DNA from: an uncultured Pseudomonadales bacterium
Lineage (GTDB): Bacteria > Pseudomonadota > Gammaproteobacteria > Pseudomonadales > Azotimanducaceae
Direction of reading: 5' to 3'
Assembly: GCA_964445675.1 (NCBI GenBank)
Contig: CAYUMA010000564.1
Coordinates: 1-43,034 of the forward strand
Length of the DNA: 43,034 nt
The notes beneath the pieces are model-generated. The model saw nothing but the letters and a program-made list of their open reading frames with translations, was not told the DNA's origin and searched no databases. Positions 8,196 through 42,441 of the stretch are shown piece by piece. Each line of letters opens with the position of its first letter. The stretch's first letter is position 1. Position numbers and translations under genes: made by a program.

Positions 8196-8238
8196 GCGTC
8201 TCGCGCGAGGATCTACGGTGAACTCCCACCTAGCGTGA

Positions 8239-8883: not shown

Positions 8884-8988
8884 TCAGCGGGTGTACAGCA
8901 ACACCCCACCGCTGCCTACAGCAACTGCAGGACTGTTTCCGTCAGCGAACGGCGATAGCCTGTCTACTGGCATCGGAGGGGCGCCGCT

Positions 8989-18316: not shown

Positions 18317-19948
18317 TCAAGCAGGCCCGCCCTGGGACGGTCGTGGCACGCCCGCCTCGGCGTGCGCGAGATGACGCCGCACCGCGTCGACGAGTTGCGG
18401 CAATGCTTCGGCGGCGTCTCCCTTACTCGCGTCGAGCCAATGCGAGGTGTTCAGGAAGTACCCCAGGGCATCCGGCAACGGTGCTTTGTCAATCCGCAAC
18501 GAAATGACCGGGTGGCGCTTCGACATCGCGCGTTCGACCTCTCGCAGCACATGGGGCGATGTCGCTGCGTTGCGCGACAGGATGAGCACCATGACCTTCG
18601 CGACATCCATGGCGTGCACGATGGCATCTGGGTAGAGATCGCCAGGTGTCACATCGCGCGCCGCGACCCAGCACTTCATACCCTCGCGTTCCAGCGCCGC
18701 ACAAACGGCATCGGCAACGGCGATGTCTTCTGAGGCGACGCTGAGAAACACGTCCCGGCCTGCGGCGGGAATTTGGCCTGCACCGGGCCGTGTTGTGGAC
18801 GAGCCTTTCGCTTCGGCGGCCGCTGTACTCCTCCGACGCGTGCCGAGCACGTTGTACGCACTGATGGGGCGCTTGAAGCCGCGCAACTGAAGTTCCCCGA
18901 CCGGAGCGGATTCGAAGTGGCTCTCCACCACCATGAGCAGCCGGCGCGAGACCAGGATCTGGCCGTGCCGCGCCTCCCCGCACAGTCGCGCGGCGAGATT
19001 TGTCACCGCGCCGATCGCGGCGTAGTCCCAACGCCCTTCGAAGCCGATCTCGCCGATCGTCGCAAAACCGTTCGCAATCCCGATCCCGAGGCCGAGATCG
19101 TAGTCGCGCTTGTCCCAGCGCGTTGCCTTGAGCTGCTCGACCCTGTCGCGGATTTCGAGCGCCATGTCGACCGCGCTGCGCTCAGGCTGCTCCACCGGCA
19201 CGGGGTCATTGAAGAAGATCATCATCCCGTCCCCGGTGAAGCGCTCGAGCGTTCCCTTGTGCTGCACAATCAGCTGTCCCACCTCTTTGTGGAACTCGCT
19301 GAGCACCATCATCATTTCCTCGGGTTCCTCCGACTCCGCGAAAGCGGTGAAGCCACGCAGGTCGAGGAAGGCAACGCTGACGTCGCCGCGGTGCGGGCGC
19401 AGCGGATCGTCGGTGGCGCCGCTGACGATCAGCTCCGCGAGCTGCGGCGAAAAGAAGCGTTTCAGCCGCGAGAGGTGCTCGATCGCCGTGACCTGCTCCG
19501 CCACCCTCGCCTCCAGCGTCCGGTTCCAATCGCTGAGCTGCGTCGCCTGCTGTCCGACGAGCCGGTGCAGCTCGCCAATTCGCAGCAACGAGCGCACTCG
19601 CGCCAAAAGCTCCTGGCGATTGATCGGCCTCGTCAAAAAATCGTCCGCACCTGCCTCGATGCCCTTCACGCGCTCCTCGGCCGGATCGAGGGCCGTAATC
19701 ATGACAACCGGAAGCAGCGTCGTGGTCGGGTCCGCGCGAATTCGACGGCACACCTCGTAGCCATCGAGGTCCGGCATCATCACGTCGAGCAGCACGGCAT
19801 CCGGTGCGAATTCTCCGATCGCCGCTAGACCTTCGCGGCCCGAGTGAGCAATCCGCACGTCGTAACCGTGCAGCGCGAGAACGTCGCCCAACAGTTTTCC
19901 GTTAGCGGGTTGGTCGTCTACGACTAAGAGGCGGCCGCGCGTGGTCAT
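18317..19948 (-). CDS. Three-domain signalling protein: receiver (REC), class III adenylate/guanylate-type cyclase, and C-terminal TIR domain
   Basis: REC: LLVVDDQ...LLDVMMPDLDG...ADDFLTRP. Cyclase: VAFLDLRGFT, RFTGDGMMIFF, YAAIGAVTNLAARL. TIR: DVFLSVASEDIAVADAVCAALEREGMKCWVAARDVTPGDLYPDAIVHAMDVAKVMVLILSRNAATSPHVLREVERA. ATGA overlap with the upstream CheY gene. Confidence 0.8.
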   Translation of the reverse strand: MTTRGRLLVVDDQPANGKLLGDVLALHGYDVRIAHSGREGLAAIGEFAPDAVLLDVMMPDLDGYEVCRRIRADPTTTLLPVVMITALDPAEERVKGIEAGADDFLTRPINRQELLARVRSLLRIGELHRLVGQQATQLSDWNRTLEARVAEQVTAIEHLSRLKRFFSPQLAELIVSGATDDPLRPHRGDVSVAFLDLRGFTAFAESEEPEEMMMVLSEFHKEVGQLIVQHKGTLERFTGDGMMIFFNDPVPVEQPERSAVDMALEIRDRVEQLKATRWDKRDYDLGLGIGIANGFATIGEIGFEGRWDYAAIGAVTNLAARLCGEARHGQILVSRRLLMVVESHFESAPVGELQLRGFKRPISAYNVLGTRRRSTAAAEAKGSSTTRPGAGQIPAAGRDVFLSVASEDIAVADAVCAALEREGMKCWVAARDVTPGDLYPDAIVHAMDVAKVMVLILSRNAATSPHVLREVERAMSKRHPVISLRIDKAPLPDALGYFLNTSHWLDASKGDAAEALPQLVDAVRRHLAHAEAGVPRPSQGGPA

Positions 19949-25845: not shown

Positions 25846-26334
25846 TCAAAACCCGAAATCATCTTGCTCAGTTCCATCGGGAATCGAAGCCTGAGTTGCC
25901 GACATCCGATCCACGTGCTGGTCGTCGTCCAGACGTACGAGTAGCGGTTCGTCGCGGTGTCTTACCTCAACGTACTTCCAGGCGCACGAGAGCGTTTCTT
26001 CGATGACATCGACTGGCGCACCCGTCGTGCAAGCGACTGCGTGCCAAGTCGGATAGCTGGCGGCAAAGATATCGAGGCCCTGGTTGCCAATGAGGCTGAA
26101 CTTGACCGGGACGGCGCTGCCGGCCTTGGCGCGATTGATCACCGGCAGATTGTCAACCGGTTGGAAGAAGCCGCTGAACTGGAACACCACCGTGTAGCTG
26201 ACGCTCGCGGAGTTCTCGTTGCCGGCTTTGTCCGTCACTGTGCAGCTGCGAAGAACATCCAGGACGAACGCATCGTCGGATTGTGTGAAGGGCTGCAGCT
26301 CGACCGCGTCGCCAACGAGTACGGCGCCATCGCA
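25846..26334 (-). pseudogene. 5'-truncated fragment of a PxKF-domain (Ig-like surface protein) gene
   Basis: CTVTDKAGNENSASVSYTVVFQFSGFFQPVDNLPVINRAKAGSAVPVKFSLIGNQGLDIFAASYP...APVDVIEET carries the PxKF signature (PVKF). There is no plausible N-terminus or signal peptide, and the upstream part of the track ORF is antisense to the IstB remnant. Confidence 0.55.
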
Positions 26335-26634
26335 CAAGCTTCGGCCGATGCATCGGCGACTTTCAGCGACTTTCTCGAGCGCGTGTTGAGAGTCGAATGC
26401 GATGCGCGTCATGAGCGGTCGCGGCAGACGCTGCTCAAGTTCGCGACACTGCCGGCGATCAAGACGTTGGAAGGCTATGACTTCAACTTCGCCAGTGTCG
26501 CGCCCAAAACCCAGATCCAGGAACTGGCGAGTCTGTCGTTTTTGATTCGGTCTGGGCCTGGGCGCGGATGCAACAAAGAGTCGCATTCAGCGATTCGCGA
26601 TACGCCTACTGAAAGCGGCTTGAGATCACGCTAA
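26329..26634 (+). mobile_element. istB: Remnant of an IS21-family istB helper-ATPase gene: N-terminal segment only, Walker region degenerate or missing
   Basis: SATFSDFLERVLRVECDARHERSRQTLLKFATLPAIKTLEGYDFNFASVAPKTQIQELASLSFL matches the conserved IstB N-terminal region. The expected GPxGxGKTHLA is replaced by SGPGRGCNKESHS. No istA and no inverted repeats were seen. Confidence 0.55.
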
Positions 26635-27773
26635 GGCGCCTCGAGGTATGCCGCGACGGCGGTGTGTACAAACGCACGGATCTCACCGGCAGATTTCGCT
26701 TCCCCGGCTTCGAGCGCACCCGCAAATTCGAAGAGCGGCAAAAAGAGTTGCCGTTGGTCCGGCTGGCCCCGCAATACGATGGTGCCGTCTGCGATGTAGG
26801 TGGCCCATTCGGCGCGTACGGCTTCCCACAGCGGTGCGGTGCGTGTCCAGTAATGGTCGGCCGGCGTCCAATCGAAGTCGATGATGGACTCGTAACGGTT
26901 CAGACCGAACTCGCGCACCAGCACAGGCGCGTTGGGCACGGCGTTGCCCGCCTCATCGAGTTCAACCTTCAGGTTGAGCTCTTCCTGAATCCAACCCGTC
27001 GGCGTGATCGTGTGCCGGTTCGATCCCGACAACACGTGATAGTCGCTGCGCACACTGAACTCGCGACGCGGTAACGGACGCCACTCCTCGCCGCTCACCC
27101 ACGTGGAGTAGTTGCCGAAGTGTTGCCACCGACCCACGCCGGAATAACGCGGCGAATCGTCCACTTGCCATACACTTTGCACCCATGCCCCCGTGCGATC
27201 GACGCCGGGCAAGGCGACGATCTGCCAGCGATTTCGGCCTCGATACACGACGCGCTCGAGTGCTTCGTACGTCCAGTTCTGACGCCAGTGTTTGGTCACG
27301 AGCGGGCCGCGTAGCGTTCCGGCCTTATCGATCGCGTTCATCACGAGGATGTGTTGCAACGAGATTGCGCGACCGGTGTCGGCGATCACGTACACCTTCT
27401 CGGTGCCCCAACTTTGAAACGGCCGGTCGGGTTTGAACGCGTCCCGGAACCCGGCCACCTCGATGAAATCGAACGTGGCTCGGTATTCGCCGGCCATCGC
27501 GAGGATCGCACGACGGTCCCGCTCGAAAGCGGAAAGAGCGGGTTCCGACAGGTGGTGCCACTCCGCGCGCGGCGTTGTCGCCAACGTAACGACCTGGCCT
27601 TTCGTCGTGCCGCCACGCGGCCGCATTGCGTTGTCGTCTGCGAACGGCCAGGCAAACGTGTACTGCCGCGTCGCCGCTGCCAACGGCGCGGCCCGCTCCG
27701 CGTCCGCCGCATGGACGCCGGGCGTCAGCAGGACGAGGAGCGCGCACACGCGGAACTTTGCCAGCCCGCTCAT
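26631..27773 (-). CDS. Secreted hypothetical protein (~380 aa), Trp/Arg-rich
   Basis: ATG 27773 gives the signal peptide MSGLAKFRVCALLVLLTPGVHA|AD. The track ORF start at 28073 adds 100 non-signal residues and was rejected. No family assigned with confidence. Confidence 0.55.
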   Translation of the reverse strand: MSGLAKFRVCALLVLLTPGVHAADAERAAPLAAATRQYTFAWPFADDNAMRPRGGTTKGQVVTLATTPRAEWHHLSEPALSAFERDRRAILAMAGEYRATFDFIEVAGFRDAFKPDRPFQSWGTEKVYVIADTGRAISLQHILVMNAIDKAGTLRGPLVTKHWRQNWTYEALERVVYRGRNRWQIVALPGVDRTGAWVQSVWQVDDSPRYSGVGRWQHFGNYSTWVSGEEWRPLPRREFSVRSDYHVLSGSNRHTITPTGWIQEELNLKVELDEAGNAVPNAPVLVREFGLNRYESIIDFDWTPADHYWTRTAPLWEAVRAEWATYIADGTIVLRGQPDQRQLFLPLFEFAGALEAGEAKSAGEIRAFVHTAVAAYLEAP

Positions 27774-28069
27774 CGTGGCACTCGTGCCAAATCCTCGCGG
27801 AGGCGTATTGCGGCAGCGAAGTAGTGAGCGGCACTCGGTCGCGGTGAATCCATCCGACAGAATACCCCTGGCCCAAGGCCCGAGTCCGAGATCCATGAAA
27901 TTCAATACGAAGGACAGCAGCTCGACGCGACGGCGCCCATGCGGTGGGTCAACGCGAGTACCGGTCCGGTTTGTATGTACACCAGCAGCCAACGTGTAGC
28001 ATCTCTTCAAGATCCAGGCGTCGAGGCTCCTGCGCCTGTCCCGGTGAGCGCGGACACAGCCGCGGGCGT

Positions 28070-28726
28070 TCATTTCGTAAAGCGGGCATTTTCCATGAGC
28101 ACTTTGTACTCGTAACCGGCCCCGAGATTCACATTGGTTTTCAGCAGGCCCACCGCCGTGACGATGTCACCGACCGCGGCCTCCTCCTGGGTCGTGGCGA
28201 CGATGGCGTCGTCGGGAGATTGGCCCGTGCCATCGGACAAGGTCACCCAGTTCATGCCTAGAATATGGGGATTGACCTTGATCACCTTGGCCCGCAGCGC
28301 GACAGTTTTGCCTGCCAATGTCGCCGAAGTCTCGAAGATCTTCTCCACCGTTGTACCGTCGGCGGCACGCGCTGTTTCGAGATCAATGCCCTGATGGATG
28401 GCGTCCGGAGGCAGGTCCTTGCCGACAACATGGATACGCGAGACGAAGCGTATGGATTCAAATGTCTTGTTCAGTGCCTTGCTCGTGAAGGCCTGCATGA
28501 CATCGCCGCCGGCGTACTCGACTTGATCGCCGACTACGGCCGTCAGGGGTTGGGTGGCGAGCCAGTGTTGCTCGCCGGCCTCCTCGATTTGCAGATAGGT
28601 GTAGCTGCCGGCGCGCTCTGCAGAGATCACGGTGCCGGAATGGACGGCATCGTCGTCGGCATGTCCGGCAGCCGCGTACAACAGGACCGCAATGACGGCG
28701 GTTGCGATTGATCTGGGCTTGTTCAT
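28070..28726 (-). CDS. Secreted protein with two similar beta-rich (OB-like) halves
   Basis: ATGA overlap with the upstream gene. Signal peptide MNKPRSIATAVIAVLLYAAAGHA. Half 1: GTVISAERAGSYTYLQIEEAGEQHWLAT...AVVGDQVEY. Half 2: GKTVALRAKVIKVNPHILGMNWVTLSDGTGQ...IVAT...AAVGDIVTA. Confidence 0.6.
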   Translation of the reverse strand: MNKPRSIATAVIAVLLYAAAGHADDDAVHSGTVISAERAGSYTYLQIEEAGEQHWLATQPLTAVVGDQVEYAGGDVMQAFTSKALNKTFESIRFVSRIHVVGKDLPPDAIHQGIDLETARAADGTTVEKIFETSATLAGKTVALRAKVIKVNPHILGMNWVTLSDGTGQSPDDAIVATTQEEAAVGDIVTAVGLLKTNVNLGAGYEYKVLMENARFTK

Positions 28727-31599
28727 TTTTTCTCCAAGCGTTCTCGAAAAACTGAGAGATTGTCCCGGGCAACCTGATTCCCGGGGTCTAGGCTCACGGC
28801 CACCGTGGCCTCCCGCACGGCATCCTGCATCCTGCCGCGTTGCGCATAAAGCACCGCGAGGTTGTTCCGCAGACCGGCAGAATCGTGACCTAGGGCGAGT
28901 GCATTTTGTAGATTGGTATGAGCGCTTTGCGCATTGCCGGTCTGGAGATAGAGGGTACCCAGGTGTGAGTAGGCCTCGCCGAGATCCGGTCTGAGCGCCG
29001 CGGCTCGCTCAAAGGACGCGATAGCGCCGGTCAAGTCACCGGTCTGCATGCGCAGCAGGGCGAGGACAAAAGGGGCCTGATCGTCGGCCGGATTGAGCTC
29101 GGCGGCGCGCGCCAGCGCACCCTTGGCATTGGCAATCGATCGATGGGCAGCCAAGGTCCGCCCCCAGTCCTTCAACACCTCCGCCGCTCGAGCCGCTTCG
29201 CCTGCGCCGACGCGGGTGGCCGGAAACGATTCGGCGGACTTGCTTTTCTGCAAGGCCTGGATGTTCTCGCGCTGCGCGGTCGGAGAATAGAGCGAGCGGG
29301 GCGCGCGGTACTCCAGCAGCGGCAGGTTGTCCGTGTTTAGTGCCCCCGTCCGGGCGTAGTCGCGTGCCTCGTCGGCGTTCAGCATAAAGGAACTGAACAG
29401 GGAAGCGGCATCCGGGTAGCCGATCCGAGCTAGGCTGGCCGCTACGCGCGAATCCTTTGCGAACAGGCCATCCAAGGCCAGCGGATCGATCTCGATCGGT
29501 TCGGTGCTGCCGAGGAAGATGACGTCCGGAAACCCGGGATCAGCCCATAGGGTGACATACGGAAAGACGGACCTGAAGGTCCGCACCACCAGCCTAAAGG
29601 TCTCGACATCGACGCCGTACAGATGCATCCACTGCGCCATCAGTCCACCCGGTTTCAGGCTGCTGCGGGCATGCATGAAGGCCTCGCGCGTGAACAGTCG
29701 CGACGACCCGGACTGCCAGGGGTTCGAGGGCTCCGAGATAATGACATCGTACTGGTATCGGGCGGCGGCGAGATAGGAGCGACCATCGTCAACGATAAGG
29801 TTGAAGCGGCTGTCATCCATAATGTGAAAATTTTCGGCATCGAAGAACCGGCTGGCCTCCTGCATGGCTGGTTCGATTTCGACGCAGTCGATACGCTCCA
29901 CCGGATGGCGGGCGACCGCACCGGCGGTGATCCCGCTCGCGTAGCCGATGACCAGCACGTCCCGCGCCTGCGGTTCGACCAAGAAGGGCAGATGCCCGAT
30001 GATGACCTGGGTGGTCATGTCCCGGTAGTTGCCCGCGTCGGTCTTGCCGTCCACCACCAAGCGCACGTGCAAGCCCTCGCGGATCACCGAGACCGTCGCC
30101 ATCGGCCCCTCCCGGTAATAGAGTTGCTCGATCCGGGCAAGCCGTTGCTCGATGGGCATTTGTTGGTACTGGACCGCGTACGCATAAGGGCCGCTGGTCA
30201 TCTTCAGCCGGTCCCAGGGCGGCTGCCATACCAGCAACAGCAGCATGCAGGCTGTCGCCAATGCTGGCGCCGGGACATGTTTCCCCTCGCGCCGCCGTAC
30301 CAGGACATACAGCGACAGTCCCAGCCCGCAAACAAGGTTGAGATACACGGTGAGCAGCAGAGTCTGCTGTATTCCCAACCGCGGCAGCAGGACGAACCCG
30401 GCCAGGAGCGCACCGAGGATGGCGCCGATGGTGTTGCCCGCGTAAAGCAGGCCAATTCTCCGGCCGCTGCTGCCGAACTGCTCGACCACCAGCGCACTGG
30501 CCACCGGGAAGGAAGCGCCCATGAACAGCGTGGCCGGCACCATGACCACAAAGCAAAGCAGGAAATTGGCAAGCAGGAACAGGGAGTAGTTCTTGCCGAC
30601 CGCTCCGAAGAGTGCGACGAAGGCGTCGGGCAGCAATCCGAACGTGGCCGCAGTCCCGAGTGCCAGCAGGCCGATCAACACCTGGCACCAGGCGAGCAGG
30701 CTCAGACCGGGCTCTTGACGTGCGGCATAGCGGCCGACCAGCGCGCTGCCAAGTGTAATGCCGATCAGGAAGGTCGCCAGCATGGCGGTGCGGGCATAGG
30801 TCGACGAACCGATCACCAGGGTCAACACTCGCGTCCAGGCCACCTCGTAGATCAGCGCCGCCATGCCGGAGAAAAACAACATCACAACGGCCAACACAGC
30901 TCGGGCGGACCATCGGGAAGCGTCGACCGCCTGTGGCGAAGCAGGTGCGGGCGGTGCCGGGGGTGCCACGGCCAGGCGCATACGCGGCATGCGGTAGGCG
31001 AAGATGAAGATCGCGATATTGACCAGTCCCGCCGCCAGCAGAAGCGCCTGTATACCCATCAGCTGCAGCAACAGCAGACCCGCCGCGAGAGTGCCAAGCA
31101 CTGCGCCGAGGGTATTGATGAAATACAGTCGCGCGATGGACCGGGCAGTGTTGCCGCCACCCTCATCCGCGCGCAGAAATACCTTGGACAGCACCGGCAG
31201 GGTCCCGCCCATCAGCAGCGTCGGCGGCAGCACCAGCAGCGCGGACAGCGCGAGGCGTTGCAGCACCGCCGCCCAGAAACCGGGCGCCGCATCGTCGTTG
31301 ATCAGCAGATACATCTGCTGGATGGTGGCGAAGGTCAGCGGGGTGGCCATCGCCAGCAGGCCGATGCCCAATTCGAGCTTGCCATACAAGCGCAGCGGCT
31401 CGGCCGTGTGGTCCGCCTTTCTGCCGAGCACCGCGGCGCCGATCGCCAACCCGCCCATGAAAACGGCCAGCACGGAGCTCACCGCCAGGATCGTGGAGCC
31501 GAAGAACAGGGTCAACAGGCGCGTCCACACCACCTGGTAGACGAGGGCGGTTGCCCCCGAGAGCAGGATCAGGAACTGGAGCTTGCGGTGCTGCGTCAC
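28723..31599 (-). CDS. Fused polytopic (MFS-like, ~14 TM) / spermidine-synthase-like / TPR protein
   Basis: GTG start. Two blocks of ~7 TM helices (aa 1-210 and ~245-470). Class I methyltransferase / spermidine-synthase-like core: DVLVIGYASGITAGAV...RIDCVEIEPAM...YDVIISEPSNPWQSG...LKPGGLMAQW. C-terminal TPR repeats: AEVLKDWGRTL...NPADDQAPFVLALLRMQTGDLTGAIASFERAAALRPDLGEAYSHLGTLYLQTGNAQSA... Confidence 0.8.
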   Translation of the reverse strand: MTQHRKLQFLILLSGATALVYQVVWTRLLTLFFGSTILAVSSVLAVFMGGLAIGAAVLGRKADHTAEPLRLYGKLELGIGLLAMATPLTFATIQQMYLLINDDAAPGFWAAVLQRLALSALLVLPPTLLMGGTLPVLSKVFLRADEGGGNTARSIARLYFINTLGAVLGTLAAGLLLLQLMGIQALLLAAGLVNIAIFIFAYRMPRMRLAVAPPAPPAPASPQAVDASRWSARAVLAVVMLFFSGMAALIYEVAWTRVLTLVIGSSTYARTAMLATFLIGITLGSALVGRYAARQEPGLSLLAWCQVLIGLLALGTAATFGLLPDAFVALFGAVGKNYSLFLLANFLLCFVVMVPATLFMGASFPVASALVVEQFGSSGRRIGLLYAGNTIGAILGALLAGFVLLPRLGIQQTLLLTVYLNLVCGLGLSLYVLVRRREGKHVPAPALATACMLLLLVWQPPWDRLKMTSGPYAYAVQYQQMPIEQRLARIEQLYYREGPMATVSVIREGLHVRLVVDGKTDAGNYRDMTTQVIIGHLPFLVEPQARDVLVIGYASGITAGAVARHPVERIDCVEIEPAMQEASRFFDAENFHIMDDSRFNLIVDDGRSYLAAARYQYDVIISEPSNPWQSGSSRLFTREAFMHARSSLKPGGLMAQWMHLYGVDVETFRLVVRTFRSVFPYVTLWADPGFPDVIFLGSTEPIEIDPLALDGLFAKDSRVAASLARIGYPDAASLFSSFMLNADEARDYARTGALNTDNLPLLEYRAPRSLYSPTAQRENIQALQKSKSAESFPATRVGAGEAARAAEVLKDWGRTLAAHRSIANAKGALARAAELNPADDQAPFVLALLRMQTGDLTGAIASFERAAALRPDLGEAYSHLGTLYLQTGNAQSAHTNLQNALALGHDSAGLRNNLAVLYAQRGRMQDAVREATVAVSLDPGNQVARDNLSVFRERLEKK

Positions 31600-31687: not shown

Positions 31688-33397
31688 TCACGGTGTCAGC
31701 GCTGCGTGGTCCTTGCCGTGGCAGCTCAAATAGCACTGGCCGGTGAAAATCCCGGTGTCCTGGTAATACAGCCGGCCCATGCTGTCGGGCTGCACGATGT
31801 TCAGGTCGAAGTTGATGAGATGGGCATTGTTGACTGCGTTGCCTTGGCTGGCGCCGATGCCGTGTGGATCGTGACAGGCGGAGCAAGGCGTGTTGCTGGT
31901 CACGATGTGCCGGTAGTGCTCCTTGAAGCTCTGATCGGCGAGGATGCCGGCGCGGCTGTGGCAGCCATAACAGAGTTCGTAGGTGTCCGGCCTTTCCGTG
32001 GTGTTGTCCGCGGTCAGGTAGTTCTTTGCCAGCAGATAGGGGTTGTTCGAGCCATGCGGTCCCCGGGGTCCGAAGGGGTCGTCGTTGCTGTGGCAGTCGG
32101 TGCAGGAAATCCGGCTGGATGTGGTATAGGGCGGCAGTAGGCTCGGCACATTCGGATTGACGCCGACCGCCGTCACCGGATGGAACGAGGGGTTAGCCGG
32201 ATCGAATTCCAGACGGGTATTCAACTGCGGGAGCTGACGCGTAATGGGCAGGCTGTTGCTGACGTTGTTGTCGGCGTGGCACTTGAAGCAAATCTCGTAC
32301 TCGTTCTGGGCATACCCGACCGCCAGGCCCGCCGCATCGATCCCGCTGACCCCCTGGGTGGCACCGGACACGAACGGTGCGCCGCGTGAGGGCGCGGCGT
32401 TGGTCTGGTGCGGGTTATGGCAATCGGCGCATTCGACGTGCTTCGGCGCACCGCCGTTGGCGAAGTCTTCAGCGGCGTCATGCACGCCTGTGTAATTCTG
32501 CACGAAGTGACCGTAGAGCTTGGTCACTTCGTCGCCAATGTTCTTGGTCGCCACGTTGCCGGTATGACAGACCAGGCAGTTGTCTTCTTCGGTGGCGTAG
32601 TTCATTAGCTGCGAATGACCGCCCGCCGCGTGCGAGACGTGGCAGCTGCTGCAGCCGTTCTCCGCCACCGTGTCGTAGGGTAAGCCGGGCCAGGGGTCGG
32701 CGCCGCTACCGTTCCACTGCTGGCTCGAGAGCGCATGCCCGCTCAGCAGCCAGCCGTCGTTGACATGGCAGCTGGTGCACAGGGCGGAGTATTGATTGGA
32801 CATCACCAGAAACTTGCCATAGAGGTCATCGTGCGGGTCATGGCAGGCTGTGCACTGCAGCTCCCGGTTCCTGTCCAGTCTCACCTGCGGCGGCAGATTG
32901 CTCGGGTCGGCCAGCTCCGGGTTGCCCGCGGCGAGGGTGCTGTCGTAGGCGAACGATACCGGGTGATCGTCCGACAGGTCGGAGCCGAGCCGGGTGCGAC
33001 CTTCCGGGATAAAGCGCATGCCACCCGCGAAGGGCACCTCCGCGGGGCGAGTCAGCAACGCGCCCAAAGCGACGGTGCCGTCATGACAGCTCAGGCACAG
33101 CTTGGAGGCGCCCGTCGGCTGCCCTACCGTTGCCTGCAGCGTGGAACTCTGGTACGGGGTGTAGTTGGTCGTCGTATCTTGTCGGTTCCACAGGAAGGGG
33201 ACGTCCCGCCGCGCACTATGGGGCACGTGGCAGAACACGCAGACCTCCCCTTCGGTGGTCGATTTCACCGGTCCAGGTCCAGAGATTGACAGGTTGTGTC
33301 GAGTGTCCAGGATGCTGGCCAGGGGCAGGGTGTCTGGAATGCCCGCGATGATCAGCCCGAGCATGCTCGCACCGAGTAGCCGTGGCGTGATGCTCAT
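31688..33397 (-). CDS. Multihaem c-type cytochrome with 12 haem-binding sites (11 CXXCH + 1 CX3CH), doubled-CXXCH/OmcS-like N-terminal module
   Basis: Motifs in order: CVFCH, CLSCH, CTACH, CTSCH, CSSCH, CLVCH, CADCH, CFKCH, CTDCH, CYGCH, CSACH, CYLSCH. Hydrophobic N-terminus LLGASMLGLIIAGI. ATGA overlap with the upstream NHL gene. Confidence 0.9.
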   Translation of the reverse strand: MSITPRLLGASMLGLIIAGIPDTLPLASILDTRHNLSISGPGPVKSTTEGEVCVFCHVPHSARRDVPFLWNRQDTTTNYTPYQSSTLQATVGQPTGASKLCLSCHDGTVALGALLTRPAEVPFAGGMRFIPEGRTRLGSDLSDDHPVSFAYDSTLAAGNPELADPSNLPPQVRLDRNRELQCTACHDPHDDLYGKFLVMSNQYSALCTSCHVNDGWLLSGHALSSQQWNGSGADPWPGLPYDTVAENGCSSCHVSHAAGGHSQLMNYATEEDNCLVCHTGNVATKNIGDEVTKLYGHFVQNYTGVHDAAEDFANGGAPKHVECADCHNPHQTNAAPSRGAPFVSGATQGVSGIDAAGLAVGYAQNEYEICFKCHADNNVSNSLPITRQLPQLNTRLEFDPANPSFHPVTAVGVNPNVPSLLPPYTTSSRISCTDCHSNDDPFGPRGPHGSNNPYLLAKNYLTADNTTERPDTYELCYGCHSRAGILADQSFKEHYRHIVTSNTPCSACHDPHGIGASQGNAVNNAHLINFDLNIVQPDSMGRLYYQDTGIFTGQCYLSCHGKDHAALTP

Positions 33398-34452
33398 GGG
33401 AGCTTCGCATCCGTCACATACTGGAAGACCTGGACCCTCTGGTTGTAGGTGTCCGAAACATAGATACGATCGTGGCTGTCAATGAATATGCCCGACGGCA
33501 GCCAGAACTCGCCGGGCGCCTGCCCGGACTTGCCAAAGGCCATCAACAGCCGCCCGTCCCGATCGAACACCTGGACGTTGTCAAACAAAGCATCGACGAC
33601 ATAGATATTCCCATCGCTGTCTACGGCTACGCCCTTCGGCCGGGCAAACTGGCCGAGGCTGTCGCCCGGCGCCCCGAACGCACGCAGGTATCCGCCCTCT
33701 GCGCTCAGGATCTGGATCCGGAAGTTGAGCGAATCGGTTACGAGCATCTGGCCGTCTGGCGTCACCACGATATGGGTCGGAGAGTGAAAGCTGCCAGCCT
33801 CGGTTCCTTCCGTGCCGATGACGCCCTTGAACTCGTGGTCGGGCAGCCCGTAGCGCAGGATGCCGGGATTGACGGCATCCACGACCAACAGTTCATCGGT
33901 CAGTGGATTGATCGTCACGCCCGTGGGTCGGCGCATACCGGCGCTGCGGATTGCCCCGACCTGCTCTGCACCGCCCTCGGTGAAGACCCAGACCACCGCC
34001 TGTGCCGAATCGGTCACGTAGACCCGGGCCCTGCGGTTATCGACCGCGATGCCCACGGGTGACACCAGCACAGGCTCGCGCTGTGGGAACAAACGATACT
34101 TATGCGCCCGCGGGTCGTACACGTGGATCTTCTTCAGAAAATTGTCCACGACATAGAGTCGACCCGCCGCGTCCACGGCGAGGCCGTGAGGGTTGACGAT
34201 AGGCGTTGGCCGTTTGCCCGACAGGATGCGCAGCAAGTTGCCGAGGGCGCCGTCCCTGATGCCCATATCGGCTGGCTGCGCAACGGTGTTGACAAAACTG
34301 ATCCGGGGGACCTCGGGGGGGGCGGGCCAAAGAATGACAGCGTTGGGTGGGCGCTCTGTCGCGGGCCGGTTCGCGCAGCCGGCGTTGAATCCGACCAGAC
34401 CCGCACCCAACACGGCGAACAGACAACCGTGCATCAGGCGTCCGTGACTCAT
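33394..34452 (-). CDS. NHL-repeat beta-propeller lipoprotein (paralog 1)
   Basis: ATG at 34452 shares one base with the barrel gene's stop (TGATG). Lipobox LVGFNAGC. NHL repeats, e.g. PHGLAVDAAGRLYVVDNFLKKIHVYD, PTHIVVTPDGQMLVTDSLNFRIQIL, PKGVAVDSDGNIYVVDALFDNVQVFD, PSGIFIDSHDRIYVSDTYNQRVQVF. Confidence 0.85.
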   Translation of the reverse strand: MSHGRLMHGCLFAVLGAGLVGFNAGCANRPATERPPNAVILWPAPPEVPRISFVNTVAQPADMGIRDGALGNLLRILSGKRPTPIVNPHGLAVDAAGRLYVVDNFLKKIHVYDPRAHKYRLFPQREPVLVSPVGIAVDNRRARVYVTDSAQAVVWVFTEGGAEQVGAIRSAGMRRPTGVTINPLTDELLVVDAVNPGILRYGLPDHEFKGVIGTEGTEAGSFHSPTHIVVTPDGQMLVTDSLNFRIQILSAEGGYLRAFGAPGDSLGQFARPKGVAVDSDGNIYVVDALFDNVQVFDRDGRLLMAFGKSGQAPGEFWLPSGIFIDSHDRIYVSDTYNQRVQVFQYVTDAKLP

Positions 34453-36497
34453 CAGAACAAATCCCTTTGCAGGCTCAGGAAAACGGAATGGAGATTGCGG
34501 GTCTGGTCGATATTCTGATCTTCCTGGCGGAGAAACCGGTATGTGGCATCGGCTCGCCAGACCCCATAGGACCACTCCCACGAAACGGAGGCCCCCTTGT
34601 CGACGGTGTCGACCGAAGTACCTTCGACCACATTGTATAGACCCGCGAGCTGCAACGTGCTGCGACCCCACAACTGCCATTGAAGATCGGTCCCGAAACC
34701 GTAAAAGGTCTCGTCGCTGTTGATGTCTTTGAAGGTCGTATCGCCATAGTAGGCCGAGGCGCTGAGGAAGGCCCTGCTCGACGGCTGGAATCGCAACGTC
34801 TCCTCGACGCGCCAGCGTTTCAACGAAACGCCAGCGGTTTGATCCGAATCTTCGAATAACGCCCGGGTGGTGCTCCAGTTCCACTGCAGGTCCGTGTCGA
34901 CGATATGTGTGGCCTCCTGGTTCAAGACATCCGGGGGCGTGCCGCCGCGGAATTCCTGGTCAGACTGAGTATAGAGATAAGCAAGACGCCAGGCGCCCCA
35001 CAGGTGAAATCCGCCGCCGTAACTCTGTGACGTGACGGCGTCGTCGAAGGCGGGAACACTCAGGAAGATGTAATCGACCAGAACTGTGTCGCCATCGGCG
35101 ATCGCCCCCAGCGGTATGCGGCTTATCCTGACCGAGGTCTCGATCAGCTCCAGCGTGTAGTCCAGGCCCACGCGGTACACACGGCTGCCATCGGCATTGG
35201 TGACCACAACACTGGCCAGGTCGACATTTTCGTTGTTTAGCAGCGTGATGCCCCCTGTGGTTAACACATGGATCTCATCGAATACCGGCACGACGACGCC
35301 ACCGAGGGCTCGATTAGTCACCCGATAGTCCTGCCCCATATTGGCGAAGATCATTCCGCCCGGAATGCTGCGCTGGTAATTGAAGTTGAGGGCCCCGCCA
35401 AGGCTATCTTCACCTTGGGAATCGGTGCTGCCGCTGATACCCGCGGTGGTCACCAGGTTTTCGTACAAGGAATGCGACATGCCGACGCCGGCGAGGGTGC
35501 GATCGATGCTCTGCGGGTCGTATTCATTCTGGCTGTTTTGCAGGCTGAATTTGTCCTGCGTGTACTGCAGGTTGTAGTTGGTGCTGAAATTGCTGCGATG
35601 CCGCCAGTTCAGATTCTCGGCCAGGGTGAGCCCGGAGTTACGCGTCTCGGTCACGGTGAGGCCGGCACTGGAGGTATTGATCTGCGACTCACGGTACGTA
35701 AGCAGTGAAGCGAGCGACACTTGGTTGTCCGGCTTGAACCAGGCGTTGTTCACCAAGCTGGCGAACAGGTTCTCGGTGTCGGTGGTTGCACCCAGGCTCG
35801 CGTAGTCCTGGGTCACGTGCGAGGCGTAGAGTCGGGTGTCATTCGTGGCGCGTTGATGTCGCATGTTCAGGCGAAACTCGTCGCGCTCTTGGTCCGAATC
35901 GTAAAAGCCGGTCTGTTGCGAGTTGCCGTGGGCGTAGGACAGGAGCGTAGGCAGCACCGGATACTCGAGCGTCACGCTCGCGCCGTAGGCATCGGTTTCG
36001 AAGTCCGAGCTTGGGGCCAGGCTGCTGGTCAGGTTCGAGTTCTGGCGTCGCGCGTAAAGATCCAGGGTGTAGGGCTTGAGCTCCAGCAGGGTTGCATCGA
36101 GACTGTAGCCCAGGTAGAACCTGTCGCCGCGCAGTTCGCTGCCGCGGTCGGGTTGGTCGCGCGTTTGCTGCCACTCCGGCGACAAGCGCAGGATGTAGGA
36201 CGCCACTTCGGGGTGGTAAAGCCAGCCTTCCGTTTCCGTGTCGAAGCGCTGGCGCAACTCCTCCAAATCGTACGCATCGTCAATGAAGGGTCCGGTCCGC
36301 TCTTCCGATTCAAGACGATAGGACAAATCGAGGCCCAGTTTCGGTCGGTCGATCGCTGATTGCTGGCCCATGTATTCGGCTTCGGCCGGTAGAGCAAGCA
36401 ACGCCACGCCAAACAGCAACAGGGAAAGCCTGGCGAACGACGACTGGCGTCGGTGCCACAGGTCAACGGTTGTCACAAGGCACTGCTTCATCACCAT
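34452..36497 (-). CDS. Large (681 aa) outer-membrane beta-barrel protein; candidate porin of a porin-cytochrome conduit
   Basis: Signal peptide ...LSLLLFGVALLALPAEA|EY. Dozens of alternating aromatic/hydrophilic strand-like segments. C-terminal OMP signature ...VFLSLQRDLF. The start (ATG 36497 or 36491) overlaps the stop of the upstream cytochrome gene. Confidence 0.7.
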   Translation of the reverse strand: MVMKQCLVTTVDLWHRRQSSFARLSLLLFGVALLALPAEAEYMGQQSAIDRPKLGLDLSYRLESEERTGPFIDDAYDLEELRQRFDTETEGWLYHPEVASYILRLSPEWQQTRDQPDRGSELRGDRFYLGYSLDATLLELKPYTLDLYARRQNSNLTSSLAPSSDFETDAYGASVTLEYPVLPTLLSYAHGNSQQTGFYDSDQERDEFRLNMRHQRATNDTRLYASHVTQDYASLGATTDTENLFASLVNNAWFKPDNQVSLASLLTYRESQINTSSAGLTVTETRNSGLTLAENLNWRHRSNFSTNYNLQYTQDKFSLQNSQNEYDPQSIDRTLAGVGMSHSLYENLVTTAGISGSTDSQGEDSLGGALNFNYQRSIPGGMIFANMGQDYRVTNRALGGVVVPVFDEIHVLTTGGITLLNNENVDLASVVVTNADGSRVYRVGLDYTLELIETSVRISRIPLGAIADGDTVLVDYIFLSVPAFDDAVTSQSYGGGFHLWGAWRLAYLYTQSDQEFRGGTPPDVLNQEATHIVDTDLQWNWSTTRALFEDSDQTAGVSLKRWRVEETLRFQPSSRAFLSASAYYGDTTFKDINSDETFYGFGTDLQWQLWGRSTLQLAGLYNVVEGTSVDTVDKGASVSWEWSYGVWRADATYRFLRQEDQNIDQTRNLHSVFLSLQRDLF

Positions 36498-37159
36498 GCA
36501 TCGGGATAGTTCGCCGTCAGCAGGCGCCTGTCCTTAGCCACGTGGACAGCGTGACAGGGGACGCAGTCCGTGCGGTCCTGGTGTTCCGGTAGTTTGCTGA
36601 GCGTGTCTTGCGCATGGCAGTCAGCGCACAGCGCGTCGGTCGGCATGGCCAGCATGTAGCGTTCGGGGCCAGCGTGCGCATTGTGGCACTGGGTGCAATT
36701 TCCCGTACTCACCGGGCCATGCACCCATAGGCCGGCCGCAACGGCATCGTCCGGTGAGGTGCCTTCATGGCACCCCGAACACAGTTCGCCCATGGGCGCG
36801 AGCTGCGCGCCCGACATACTGGCCACCTGCGTCCGGGCATCCTGCGCATCCAGCGTGCCGCCGGATCCCCCGAAGCCGCCGTTGGACGAGGTCTCGTGGC
36901 ACGCATCACATGCGTTCGCCGCATACGGCCCATGAGCGAAATTGGTCGAAACGACCACCAGGCCTCGCCTCTTGGCGGCGATGTCGATCACGGCCTCGGC
37001 GGGTGTCTGTTCCACTGACGTCGCACCCGGAAGCGCCACGCCAGTGAAGAAGAAAGTCAGGACCTTGTGGCGGGCGGCAGGACTGCTGCAACCGGCGATG
37101 CCGATCAGGACCAGGCCGCCGGCCAGCGACAACAGCAATGTCCTACGTGTGTTGCGCAT
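36491..37159 (-). CDS. Pentahaem c-type cytochrome lipoprotein
   Basis: Lipobox LVLIGIAGC|SS. Five CXXCH: CDACH, CSGCH, CTQCH, CADCH, CVPCH. Confidence 0.85.
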   Translation of the reverse strand: MRNTRRTLLLSLAGGLVLIGIAGCSSPAARHKVLTFFFTGVALPGATSVEQTPAEAVIDIAAKRRGLVVVSTNFAHGPYAANACDACHETSSNGGFGGSGGTLDAQDARTQVASMSGAQLAPMGELCSGCHEGTSPDDAVAAGLWVHGPVSTGNCTQCHNAHAGPERYMLAMPTDALCADCHAQDTLSKLPEHQDRTDCVPCHAVHVAKDRRLLTANYPDAW

Positions 37160-37198: not shown

Positions 37199-38329
37199 CT
37201 ATTTCCGGTCTTCGGCGCCCGCGGCGTCCGGCGCCGTGAACGCGGGCATTCGCTCGGTCGCCGGCAGGGGCGCCCCGATCCACTCGCCGAAGCCGTAGAC
37301 ATTCACCTTCTTGGACCCCAGGAGGTTGCCGACATAGACCAGGTAGTCGATTTTGAAATCCCTGTCGACGAACTGGCTGAAGTAGCCCACGTTGGTGTAG
37401 TCGATGTGCACTGCGCTGGGCAGGTACATGCTGCCGGTGTGGGGGCCGTAGCCGCCGAAAAACAGCAGCAGGTCAGTCGATTCGGGATCAAAGATCTGGA
37501 CGTTCTCGAAGGCCGCATCCACGCCATAGACATAGCCAGACCGGTCCACGGCGATGCCCTTGGGGCGGGCGAAGCCGCCCAGAGTGTCGCCCTGGTAGCC
37601 AAAGTGCTTGACGTAGTTGCCCTGGGAGTCGAGTTTCTGGATGCGGAAATTAAAGGAGTCGGTGACGTACACATTGCCCACGCTGTCGACTTTGACGTGC
37701 GTGGGCCGGTTGAAATGGCCCGCTTCGGCGCCGGCGCTGCCGATGGTCCGAATGGTCTCGCCGCTGACTCGATCCAACACCACTACCGCCGATTTGGCGA
37801 AGTCGGCCACATACACGCGGTCCTGGTACACCGCCACATCCATTGGCCGCTCGAGCTGCCCGGCCGCGCCGTAAGCCCTCACGAATTGGTTGGCACTGTC
37901 GAACAGCAGAATCTGCTTGCGTCCCGCATCCGCTATGTATTTCAGGTCATCCTCCGTCACGCAGATGCCCATGGGGTCGTCAAGGGCCCCCTCGCGGTCG
38001 TCCTGGATGAAATCCAGCCGCTTGCCGGCCAGGTCGACGATCAGGATTTTTTTGAAGGTGCGATCGAGAACGTAGATCCTGCCGTTGGTCGAGGCGATGG
38101 CTTGCGGCCGGGCGATCTGTTTCAGCGACCGGCCCTGGCCGATCAGCCAGTCCTTCAAGCCGGAGAAGGGCTTGCCGCCGATGTCCTCCTCGGTGCTGAT
38201 GGCTTGCAGGAACTGCAGTTTCGGGGATACCGGCAGAGCCGGGAAAAACGCGGGCGCCGTTCGCTCCGGGGTGCCGGCGCAGCCGGCCAACGCCGCGACG
38301 GCGCAGGCAACCAACAAGACTCTGTTCAT
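37199..38329 (-). CDS. NHL-repeat beta-propeller lipoprotein (paralog 2)
   Basis: ATGA overlap with the upstream cytochrome gene. Lipobox AVAALAGC|AG. NHL repeats PTHVKVDSVGNVYVTDSFNFRIQKL and PKGIAVDRSGYVYGVDAAFENVQIFD are clearly paralogous to 33394-34452. Confidence 0.85.
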   Translation of the reverse strand: MNRVLLVACAVAALAGCAGTPERTAPAFFPALPVSPKLQFLQAISTEEDIGGKPFSGLKDWLIGQGRSLKQIARPQAIASTNGRIYVLDRTFKKILIVDLAGKRLDFIQDDREGALDDPMGICVTEDDLKYIADAGRKQILLFDSANQFVRAYGAAGQLERPMDVAVYQDRVYVADFAKSAVVVLDRVSGETIRTIGSAGAEAGHFNRPTHVKVDSVGNVYVTDSFNFRIQKLDSQGNYVKHFGYQGDTLGGFARPKGIAVDRSGYVYGVDAAFENVQIFDPESTDLLLFFGGYGPHTGSMYLPSAVHIDYTNVGYFSQFVDRDFKIDYLVYVGNLLGSKKVNVYGFGEWIGAPLPATERMPAFTAPDAAGAEDRK

Positions 38330-39423
38330 GGTCCGGGTCCTTCCAAGGCTTCGTCGTTCGCGGCGAGCCGCGCGTTCGGCCGATCGCCCTGCTGCGCTTG
38401 CTTTGCCTTCTCCGGATCCGTCTTGCAGGCGAGCCGCAACTCCTCGGCCGTGGCATCACTGCCTTGGCGCGGCGTGGTGCGCAGGGTGACGGGCTCGGGC
38501 TGGCAGCGATCGTATTTGACGGGACTGTGGCAGCTGCCGGCGCAGCTGCCGCCGTTCTCGGTCTTTGCGAATTGGAGCGGCAGTGTCCGGTTGCCGAACC
38601 GGAATCCCTCGACGACCAGACGTTCCTGGGCGGATCCGTGCGCGGCGTGACAGGTGCCGCAGGTGCGACCCTTTTCACGGTTGACGTGCCGAAAATGCAG
38701 ATTGAGGTTGCCGTTGCGAAAACGCGTGTCGCTCAGGGTCCGTGGCTCGGCGAATGCCGTGCTGACATGACAGCTGAAGCACAGCCTGTAGGCGTAGGCA
38801 TCGTAGCGGGCGTATAAACTATCCGGGTAGGCCTCGCTCAACAGTCGCGGGCTGTCAGACGCATGCGGCAGATGACACTCGGTGCACTCACCCCTGGCGA
38901 AGGGCGGATGGAGCCGGGCCTGTTCGCTCTCGAACACCCGCTTGGTCGCCGGAAGGGGGTGGCCCTGGGGGTCGCTCACGGCGCTGTCGTGACAGGTGAA
39001 GCACTGTTCGGGTGCGTCTTGCTTCAACAGGCCGGCGAATGCCGACTGGTGCGGGTCATGGCAAGCGGTGCACTGGCCTTCGGCCACCGGACCGTGCACC
39101 ACTTTGCCCTGGAACGCGTCCTCGTCATGGCAGTCTATGCACAATTCGGCAGACTTCTTCGGCGTTGGCTGGAAGGCGTGCCGGTTCACCTCGGTGGGCT
39201 TGTGGCAATCGGTGCAGCGGGTGCCGGTCTTGGCGGGCTTGTGCACATAGGCCTGGGTGCCAAACTCCTGATGGCATGATTCCATACAGGAGGCTTCGGT
39301 ATCGATAGGTTCGAGCGGCGGTGCGGCGGCGGCATCGAGCCACATCAGCGAAAACGACAGCGCGGCGGCCATCCGTATGACTCGGGCGCGGGGCACGGGG
39401 TGGGCGTGGTGTCGATCAATCAT
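38326..39423 (-). CDS. Multihaem c-type cytochrome with 9 sites (7 CXXCH + 2 CX3CH), c7/c3-like repeats and a disordered C-terminal tail
   Basis: Start at ATG 39423 (MIDRHH...RVIRMAAALSFSLMWLDAAAA signal). Motifs: CMESCH, CTDCH, CIDCH, CTACH, CFTCH, CTECH, CFSCH, CGTCH, CAGSCH. Confidence 0.85.
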   Translation of the reverse strand: MIDRHHAHPVPRARVIRMAAALSFSLMWLDAAAAPPLEPIDTEASCMESCHQEFGTQAYVHKPAKTGTRCTDCHKPTEVNRHAFQPTPKKSAELCIDCHDEDAFQGKVVHGPVAEGQCTACHDPHQSAFAGLLKQDAPEQCFTCHDSAVSDPQGHPLPATKRVFESEQARLHPPFARGECTECHLPHASDSPRLLSEAYPDSLYARYDAYAYRLCFSCHVSTAFAEPRTLSDTRFRNGNLNLHFRHVNREKGRTCGTCHAAHGSAQERLVVEGFRFGNRTLPLQFAKTENGGSCAGSCHSPVKYDRCQPEPVTLRTTPRQGSDATAEELRLACKTDPEKAKQAQQGDRPNARLAANDEALEGPGP

Positions 39424-39685
39424 GCGCGGTGTACTTCCCTGTCCCGCATCGCACTGCACGTTCTGGGTGTTGCGGATTGCCCCGACCTTGCGGATCGGTG
39501 ATCCGGGGTACAGGATCCCCCAACCCGGCGCCGGGTTCAGTTAAATCGGTCCCAGTTTGAACAACAGGGGTCTGCGGTACGAGCGCGGGAGACTGGGGTC
39601 GGACCACCCGGGCCAGCGGCGCCCCCGACGGCGGCAGTCCCGCGAGCTACGCGATGATCCTGTCGATACCGACCCCGTAACAAGA

Positions 39686-40503: not shown

Positions 40504-41127
40504 TTCCCCCGGTTGCTTCTTTGACTTTCTCACGGATACTTGATACCGATTGTTCGTCGACCGCGCTATTCGGTTGACACCTGACCGTGATTGGGGGGCG
40601 GACCCGATGGGGCAAACCCGCACTCGGTACAGGGATACCCTTATTGCAAGGCTGAGGCCCCGTACCCGGGGCCAAGTCTCATTCTTGCTGGAAAATTTGC
40701 GGCGGGATGCGGTTGTTGGTGGCGTTGATGTTGTTTGTTCCTTGAAGTGTTCGTCCAGCTCGCTTCTCAAGTCGGCGATCGGAGGCCGTTCGAATTCGTT
40801 GATTACCGCACGCTGTTAAGTTTTTCTGGCCGGATCAGCGACATGAGCTTCAACAGCGCGCTTCGCCGAATGCGTGCGGGATGACTTTCGTGCGCCGACG
40901 TTATTCGCCAGACAAGCGTTCGGCACGGGCGAGAGCGCAACCAGTTTCGCCAGCCGTTCGTCGCCGGGCTCGGCAGCTGCTCCAGGTCATTCGACTCGGC
41001 ATCACGCAACAAAAGGCCGCGCGCGGCACTCGCGCGAGTCAGAGGATTTCATGTAGTTCCAAACCGCTTCGGCCATTTGCGGACGCCGTGCGGAATTTCT
41101 CCGGGGCGTCGACGGTGGTCCGCTGTG

Positions 41128-42414: not shown

Positions 42415-42441
42415 GGCACCTCCACCTCGCACGGCCGTTCG

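Follow-up and report, generated by a model that had tools for sequence, protein, structure and literature searches.

A fused MFS/spermidine synthase-like/TPR protein of family NF037959 in an OmcE-type cytochrome cluster of an uncultured Pseudomonadales bacterium

The gene, its domains and its family

The window analyzed here is a stretch of 43,034 nucleotides (positions 1 to 43,034 of contig CAYUMA010000564.1, GenBank assembly GCA_964445675.1) from an uncultured bacterium of the Pseudomonadales, family Azotimanducaceae. It is found only in DNA from a freshwater sediment metagenome, and no RNA run containing it was found. On its minus strand, at 28723..31599, a gene with a GTG start encodes a protein of 958 amino acids (aa), just as an earlier note made from the letters of the sequence had read it. 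The product joins a membrane domain of the major facilitator superfamily (MFS), a domain with the fold of spermidine synthase (SpeE) and a C-terminal array of tetratricopeptide repeats (TPR). It is encoded between a 12-haem cytochrome and a small secreted protein, p218. The features of the gene and of p218, with transmembrane (TM) helices numbered from the N-terminus, are as follows.

28723..31599, minus strand: fused MFS / SpeE-like / TPR protein, NF037959 family, GTG start, 958 aa
30985..31599, minus strand: MFS repeat 1, aa 1-205, TM1-6 (model helices, internal repeat, Foldseek)
30292..30906, minus strand: MFS repeat 2, aa 232-436, TM7-12; the Pfam MFS_1 match runs past aa 436
30214..30276, minus strand: TM13, aa 442-462, VPAPALATACMLLLLVWQPPW, after a predicted cytoplasmic loop, RRREGKH
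29500..30153, minus strand: SpeE-fold domain, aa 483-700, N-terminal beta-sheet plus Rossmann fold (Foldseek, phmmer)
29926..29949, minus strand: motif I variant IGYASGIT, aa 551-558 (canonical GGGDGG)
29716..29748, minus strand: motif DVIISEPSNPW, aa 618-628 (canonical DVIIvDssDP)
29200..29499, minus strand: helical linker domain, aa 701-800, with a conserved LNTD..PLLEY.APRSLY motif (alignment, model)
28729..29196, minus strand: TPR array, aa 802-957 (Pfam, model)
28070..28726, minus strand: p218, secreted protein of 218 aa, ATGA overlap with the gene of the fused protein

The fused protein is a member of the NCBIfam family NF037959, 'fused MFS/spermidine synthase', which, as noted earlier, is without an assigned function. 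The layout that characterizes this family, an MFS-fold membrane domain fused N-terminally to a SpeE fold, is present in the AlphaFold model and in Foldseek comparisons, and the family model is matched in three stretches with 144.9 bits against a cut-off of 40. Pfam detects Spermine_synth (aa 532-682, 3e-19), MFS_1 (aa 330-447, 38.7 bits against a cut-off of 33.4) and several TPR models. The AlphaFold2 model, computed with 76 homologues in the alignment, has a pLDDT of 93.2 and a pTM of 0.90. The identity and architecture of the protein are secure, and its folds and family membership are demonstrated. Counts of conserved residues given below refer to an alignment of 76 homologues. Among the candidates tested there are 2445 family proteins at E<=1e-10, and relatives are encoded in at least 594 stretches of species-representative genomes belonging to many phyla. 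The protein shares the MFS and SpeE-like layout of the family with no structural difference, and C-terminal TPRs are also present in most of its top homologues. It differs in belonging to a sub-clade (at least 53% identity) with invariant gate-loop residues of its own and with a cytochrome cluster as its context.

The earlier note had counted about four to five TPR repeats. In the model the nine C-terminal helices form four TPRs and a capping helix, in keeping with that count. The gene overlaps that of p218 by 4 nt (ATGA), again as first described, and a GGAG sequence lies 8 nt upstream of the p218 ATG. Judging from this overlap, p218 is translationally coupled to the fused protein. It consists of two OB-like halves with a weak match to TOBE_2 (E 0.063), and is without a family assignment. 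A DUF6607 protein (26631-28073, minus strand), whose start overlaps the end of p218 by 4 nt, and a PxKF-domain protein (25846-26586, minus strand) come next. These two genes were considered as parts of the system and rejected, as they are not conserved at other loci; one related locus, L084, continues instead with sucAB.

Membrane domain, predicted topology and the SpeE-like pocket

The membrane domain had been described as two blocks of seven TM helices, fourteen in all. This count gives way to one of two homologous sets of six helices followed by a thirteenth at aa 442-462, as seen in the helices of the AlphaFold model and in an internal repeat: aa 9-195 are homologous to aa 239-422, with a local score of 295 against 46.6 +/- 8.1 for shuffled sequences. 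The protein thus has the twelve TM helices in two homologous six-helix bundles, and the fold, of an MFS transporter. Modelled alone, the membrane domain has a pLDDT of 92.8, and its top 50 Foldseek matches are MFS transporters throughout. The best of these are amine/H+ antiporters of the SLC18/DHA type, namely VPAT, NorA and VMAT2. The top structural neighbour, PDB 9D7X, was suspected of being a solved fusion protein; it is human VPAT/SLC18B1. The fused protein and these antiporters (VPAT 9D7X, NorA, VMAT2) have the 6+6 repeat in common (Foldseek probability 1.00, TMq 0.5-0.6), as well as a conserved mid-membrane Glu in TM3 and in TM7. They differ in that identity is about 15% and in that the fused protein adds the thirteenth helix and a large predicted periplasmic extension. 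Within the TM helices of the family, E76, E252, R257, N162 and N389 are near-invariant polar or charged residues, a conservation which suggests that the MFS part actively carries a substrate and does more than anchor the protein.

The resemblance to VPAT, a vesicular polyamine transporter, raises the possibility that the protein exports polyamines or other cationic amines and carries a periplasmic domain for binding or processing them, supplying the envelope or a filament matrix without modifying any protein. The amine/H+ antiporters among the nearest structures, the SpeE ancestry of the adjoining domain and the conserved acidic and aromatic residues of its pocket (E574, D605, D618, E623, W628, W657 and Y661), such as occur in polyamine sites, are all in line with such a role. 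The VPAT match does not, however, favour polyamines over other substrates, as further MFS classes, including sugar and anion carriers, reach Foldseek scores against the membrane domain similar to those of amine carriers (E-values all about 1e-6 to 1e-5). The glycine motif and the ribose and adenine residues that the pocket has kept point instead to a nucleoside ligand, and the TPR array and p218 would be left unexplained. Polyamine export is regarded as rather improbable.

The orientation of the membrane domain is predicted from its charges. With loops assigned from the helices of the AlphaFold model, the predicted cytoplasmic loops contain a mean of 19.5 lysine and arginine residues against 2.6 in the periplasmic loops, and the cytoplasmic number is the larger in all 76 homologues. 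TM13 is preceded by the basic RRREGKH loop, is as hydrophobic as the other helices in 76/76 homologues, lacks any charged residue in 74 of them and ends in an invariant tryptophan, W462. An MFS domain with both termini inside, followed by a single extra helix, places whatever comes after it on the opposite side of the membrane; the SpeE-like and TPR domains are therefore predicted to be periplasmic, and very probably are. The earlier note had guessed that the TPR array docks its partners on this side, and the topology prediction agrees with it.

The central domain spans the whole two-domain SpeE fold. Its TMt values in Foldseek against spermidine synthases of plants, humans, bacteria and archaea are 0.70-0.75, and phmmer aligns it with Arabidopsis thaliana SPDS1 at 9e-17. 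The roles of the canonical SpeE residues, among them an Asp that binds the aminopropyl amine of decarboxylated S-adenosylmethionine (dcSAM), are established by structural work on SpeE. The pocket was compared with A. thaliana SPDS1 and across the family alignment, and the two unusual motifs reported earlier, IGYASGIT and DVIISEPSNPW, are found where the feature list places them. The residues that bind the adenosyl moiety are retained: G552 and G556 of motif I, E574 (the ribose Glu) and D605 (the adenine Asp) are invariant in 76/76 homologues. D618 and W628 are also invariant across phyla, and Q531 is nearly so. The residues that handle dcSAM and putrescine are replaced. The Asp of GGGDGG that recognizes dcSAM is S555 in the fused protein and Ser in 73/76 homologues. 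T530 stands for the Tyr of Y-(Q/H)-E, E623 for the catalytic Asp, a conservative change, and N626 for the second Asp, each at least 90% conserved. Within S-E-P-S-N-P-W (S622-W628), residues S622-P627 are at least 90% conserved across phyla. The gate loop region, which in SpeE covers the acceptor site, contains residues that are invariant in the clade of the fused protein (Q629, S632, S633 and R634) and that are variable hydrophobics in the rest of the family.

The pocket had been described as non-canonical, and so it is. Because the new residues in turn reach at least 90% conservation across phyla, it is, on the evidence of this demonstrable pattern of residues, a conserved pocket of altered specificity and not a decayed one. 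By analogy with putrescine N-methyltransferase, the change of Asp to a non-acidic residue would admit S-adenosylmethionine (SAM) in place of dcSAM. When the domain is set beside SpeE structures (PDB 6O65, 2O06, 1INL), it keeps the two-domain fold, Q531, the first and last Gly of motif I, E574 and D605. It departs from them in the change of GGGDGG to GYASGI, of the catalytic Asp to Glu, of the second Asp to Asn and of the Tyr to Thr, in its fusion to 13 TM helices and in its predicted periplasmic location.

Two further explanations are bound up with this pocket. Source annotations, including that of the Joint Genome Institute (JGI), call such proteins 'spermidine synthase', and the SpeE fold and sequence similarity would agree with a true, membrane-bound spermidine synthase working in the cytoplasm. 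The scores of the fused protein nevertheless lie far under the equivalog cut-offs (TIGR00417, 84.6 vs 249.55; PRK00811, 83.9 vs 260; PRK03612, 127 vs 472). The adenosyl-binding residues characteristic of SpeE are present, but the GGGDGG motif with its dcSAM-binding Asp, both Asp residues of D-S-S-D-P and the Tyr of Y-(Q/H)-E are absent, and the domain is predicted to be periplasmic. Because these defining features of SpeE were looked for and not found, a genuine spermidine synthase is the least likely of the explanations considered, and a highly improbable one. The same alterations would fit a second proposal, that of an inert scaffold or chaperone in which the MFS-like part does no more than anchor the protein, and in which p218, the cytochrome and the beta-propeller proteins of the cluster are bound by the SpeE-like and TPR domains so that their assembly is organised at the inner membrane. 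TPR arrays serve to dock proteins, the gene to which that of the fused protein is coupled encodes a secreted product, and no supply of SAM is known at the predicted periplasmic site. Such a scaffold is unlikely in view of which residues have been held constant: those invariant or conserved across phyla belong to the nucleotide site (G552, G556, E574 and D605) and to the acceptor motif (S-E-P-S-N-P-W), charged residues are conserved within the TM helices, and a clade of about 845 aa in the Desulfuromonadales retains the MFS and SpeE-like domains with no Pfam match to TPR.

The OmcE-type cytochrome cluster and its occurrence elsewhere

The gene had been placed in a cytochrome operon. A cytochrome cluster is indeed present, and alignment with OmcE shows it to be specifically of the OmcE type. 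Besides the fused protein and p218 it contains the following genes.

31688..33397, minus strand: 12-haem cytochrome, 569 aa, of which N-terminal aa 9-211 align with the OmcE filament subunit
33394..34452, minus strand: NHL beta-propeller lipoprotein, probable true start MSHGRL..., NAGC lipobox, about 352 aa
34452..36497, minus strand: 681-aa protein with no Pfam match, signal peptide, ending ...RDLF (C-terminal Phe)
36491..37159, minus strand: 5-haem lipoprotein cytochrome, 222 aa
37199..38329, minus strand: NHL beta-propeller lipoprotein, 376 aa, with a lipobox
38326..39459, minus strand: multihaem cytochrome, 377 aa, 7 CXXCH and 2 CX3-4CH

The 12-site cytochrome gene (11 CXXCH and one CX3CH) is separated from that of the fused protein by the 88 nt first reported, and no terminator-like site was found in this gap. 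Against the PDB the cytochrome matches 7tfs (3e-28) and 9yuq (2.6e-25). Its N-terminal region aligns end to end with both, including 4/4 CXXCH and the histidines of TxH(N/D)LS and DDHPV. The 9YUQ entry is confirmed as the OmcE bundle of D. soudanensis; that of 7TFS, a 232-aa 'Cytochrome c', is presumably the OmcE filament of G. sulfurreducens. OmcE is a tetrahaem protein of roughly 230 aa, whereas the cytochrome of the window has 569 aa and 12 haem sites, an OmcE-like tetrahaem module being followed by eight more; it is a putative filament subunit. This 'long OmcE' form does not appear in the accessible portion of the OmcE preprint (bioRxiv 10.1101/2025.10.22.684050).

That preprint defines a minimal omcE cluster by OmcE itself, a pair of multihaem cytochromes, a pair of beta-propeller lipoproteins and a large beta-barrel, and reports such clusters from five phyla, Pseudomonadota and Nitrospirota among them. 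This gene set is present in the window, the barrel as a predicted member: going by the published description, the 681-aa protein is probably the large outer-membrane beta-barrel. Relative to the same description, the fused protein and p218 are extra genes. Two other inner-membrane or cytochrome systems were examined and set aside. The 'conserved inner membrane protein' of the PCC3/PCC4 clusters of iron oxidisers is a cytochrome b-like protein with five TM helices, of another family (He 2017, PMC5566968), and the Uet cluster of Gallionella/Tenderia has NHL and cytochrome genes in common with the window and no SpeE-like gene is mentioned for it (PMC10734462).

Upstream of the cluster lies a gene for a NapC/NirT-like tetrahaem protein (39736-40770, minus strand), with a strong terminator-like hairpin at 39708-39686 between the two, and further upstream one for a homologue of the flavoprotein of flavocytochrome c sulfide dehydrogenase (41128-42432, minus strand). 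Elsewhere in the window, a 543-aa open reading frame (ORF) at 18317-19948 (minus strand) unites a receiver domain of the response-regulator type with a class III adenylate/guanylate cyclase domain and a TIR domain. A 544-aa ORF at 8989-10623 (plus strand) runs from PAS, HisKA_3 and HATPase domains into an N-terminal-methylation motif and a type II secretion GspG pseudopilin domain, and represents either an unusual fusion or a pair of genes that a sequencing or assembly error has run together.

The association of the fused protein with such clusters was surveyed in the neighbourhoods of the 80 most similar loci of species-representative genomes, a multihaem gene being defined as an ORF with at least three CXXCH within 10 kb. 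The orthologous clade of the fused protein reaches down to 53% identity, the next match standing at 45%. In 6/7 clade genomes examined the cytochrome, the fused protein and p218 are adjacent. These are the window itself and the loci L001 (in a metagenome-assembled genome, MAG, labelled Rubrivivax; 66% identity of the fused protein to that of the window), L081 (in a MAG labelled Nitrospirae; about 60%), L084 (80%), L086 (72%) and L088 (about 53%). p218 adjoins the fused protein wherever the clade sits in the cluster, lying downstream in most loci and upstream in L081, where extra genes have been inserted. No other protein of the cluster is as well conserved as the 12-haem cytochrome and the fused protein, which have diverged in parallel, with identities to the window of 83/80, 74/72, 70/66, 69/61 and 63/54% for cytochrome and fused protein, respectively. 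This synteny is demonstrable within the clade, and to judge from it the fused protein and p218 are a clade-specific add-on to the OmcE-type cluster.

The link to cytochrome genes proposed in the earlier note therefore holds within the clade and fails for the family at large. For the clade of the fused protein there is good support for an association with filament-type cytochrome clusters; the family as a whole does not have this property. Since 72 of the 80 loci are away from cytochromes and share no common neighbour, the core function of the family is not cytochrome-specific. At L087 (10001-12928, plus strand) the neighbours of a clade member are toxin-antitoxin, beta-lactamase-like and Rce1-like genes, an arrangement that is unexplained if the role of the clade is strictly tied to the cluster.

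Outside the clade, further family members adjoin multihaem genes at L018, L031, L048, L064 and L065. At L018, in a MAG of the Gemmatimonadota, the neighbouring gene (7983-10019, plus strand) encodes 11 haem sites fused to a C-terminal, His-rich, cytochrome b-like part with multiple TM helices, and overlaps the start of the family member at 10013. A family member also lies next to a multihaem gene in Anaeromyxobacter, and in an Acidobacteriota MAG one is accompanied by homologues of the two smaller cytochromes and the NHL proteins of the window. The multihaem ORF beside the Trichloromonas homologue (L064) gave no match resembling OmcS or OmcE when compared with the PDB. In the Desulfuromonadales (L065 and L089; Geoalkalibacter halelectricus), the clade of about 845 aa stands beside a convergent gene for a cytochrome of about 2,600 aa, which has 31 CXXCH in L065. 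At L089 a second paralogue is found about 8 kb off, beside an FG-GAP/ASPIC protein.

The closest parallel comes from Geobacter. The gene GSU2502, beside omcT and omcS, is annotated 'spermidine synthase' (PMC10599522), and it lies within the omcS-companion (osc) operon (PMC13194489). The roles quoted there for osc proteins are folding for OscH, secretion for OscE-G and morphology for OscD, and this gene is not among them (PMC13194489). The Geobacter omcS locus of the survey, L090, contains the equivalent of GSU2502, a 1017-aa NF037959 member (12833-15886, plus strand; 157.9 bits) between omcT and the gene of an OmcS-like cytochrome, the start of which it overlaps by 4 nt. We take the GSU2502-type protein to be, probably, the OscB of Shen et al. 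2025 (Cell Chem Biol 32:239). The L090 protein has the same plan of 6+6+1 TM helices and a SpeE-like domain and is 35% identical to the fused protein over 818 aa (E 5e-123), while its C-terminal 200 aa do not align with the TPR array. An NHL propeller encoded upstream of omcS is homologous to the NHL proteins of the window (9e-22). No homologue of p218 was found at this locus. The two fused proteins further differ in their acceptor motif, DVITADPIHPW in the GSU2502-type protein against DVIISEPSNPW here, and in their partner cytochrome, OmcS-type there and OmcE-type here. Because the Geobacter protein is no closer to that of the window than generic family members are (35% identity as compared with 33-41%), it is a paralogue in an analogous position and not an ortholog. 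In both places, nonetheless, an NF037959 member lies directly beside the gene of a filament-type multihaem cytochrome; going by these gene orders, the association of family and cytochrome recurs independently in Geobacter.

These comparisons bear on the possibility that the gene is a passenger with a general envelope function unrelated to cytochromes, its place reflecting inherited synteny or transfer of the whole block. In agreement with this, most family loci lack a multihaem neighbour and have no conserved neighbours of any other kind, and both a Zixibacteria homologue (45%) and one clade member (60%) stand alone. Opposed to it are the persistence of cytochrome, fused protein and p218 together in 6/7 clade loci despite the rearrangement at L081, the close packing of the gene against its two neighbours, one of which it overlaps, the parallel divergence of fused protein and cytochrome, the distant paralogue that occupies the omcS locus of Geobacter independently, and the additional adjacent cases at L018, L031, L048, L064 and L065. 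A passenger gene is considered quite unlikely.

A possible role in cytochrome filament maturation

The favoured reading, held tentatively and at somewhat less than an even chance, is that the protein is a periplasm-facing, MFS-coupled transferase or adaptor in the maturation of filament cytochromes, an OscB-like member of NF037959 that has been recruited in this lineage, together with p218, into an OmcE-type filament and porin cluster. On this reading the MFS domain, with its N- and C-termini inside, would convey a small, positively charged molecule through the inner membrane, with a SAM- or dcSAM-like donor or a polyamine as candidates. TM13 would carry the complete SpeE fold and the TPR array to the periplasmic side. 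There the SpeE-like pocket might use the compound to modify the 12-haem OmcE-like cytochrome, or to bind this cytochrome and hand it over; alternatively the recipient may be a component of the export path of the cytochrome. In either case the step would come before the beta-barrel is crossed. The docking surface for the exported cytochrome or for the export machinery could be supplied by the TPR array and p218. Of the parts of this scheme, the case for the topology is fairly strong, and those for transport, catalysis and the identity of the substrate are weak.

Several observations weigh against such a role. The topology is itself a prediction from a model. Neither SAM nor dcSAM is known to occur in the periplasm, and we know of no periplasm-facing enzyme with the class I methyltransferase fold. 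At 72 of the 80 loci surveyed, multihaem ORFs are absent within 10 kb, and the 80 loci have no conserved neighbour in common, only shadow ORFs and scattered response regulators recurring. The clade member at L087, 60% identical to the protein of the window, stands alone and lacks a multihaem cluster within 10 kb. A gene of this kind is absent from the minimal omcE clusters of Desulfuromonadia as described in the OmcE preprint (bioRxiv 10.1101/2025.10.22.684050).

A more specific form of the proposal is that of a self-supplying periplasmic transferase, in which the MFS domain would export SAM or dcSAM to the SpeE-like domain of the same protein, and this in turn would methylate or aminopropylate an exported protein, the OmcE-like cytochrome here and OmcS in Geobacter. 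Such an enzyme is distinctly improbable. If it did exist, SAM-type chemistry would to our knowledge be new to the bacterial periplasm, and the biogenesis of cytochrome nanowires would include a modification step not seen before.

The family NF037959 was already known, and the position beside a filament cytochrome is paralleled in the published osc operon. New here are the 6+6+1 topology with its predicted periplasmic SpeE fold, the account of which pocket residues are retained and which replaced, the setting in an OmcE-type cluster with p218 and a 12-haem 'long OmcE', and the direct homology to the Geobacter gene. The maturation, export and polymerization of nanowires are described as an open question in the discussion of the OmcE preprint (bioRxiv 10.1101/2025.10.22.684050). 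The same family lies beside a filament-type cytochrome in two otherwise different clusters, the OmcS-type cluster of Geobacter and the OmcE-type cluster of the window and of the MAGs labelled Nitrospirae and Rubrivivax, and is therefore a concrete candidate for a biogenesis factor. A conserved adenosyl-binding site facing the periplasm behind a transporter domain of its own would, if true, be unusual biochemistry, and the prediction would then extend to a family encoded in at least 594 stretches of genomes from many phyla.

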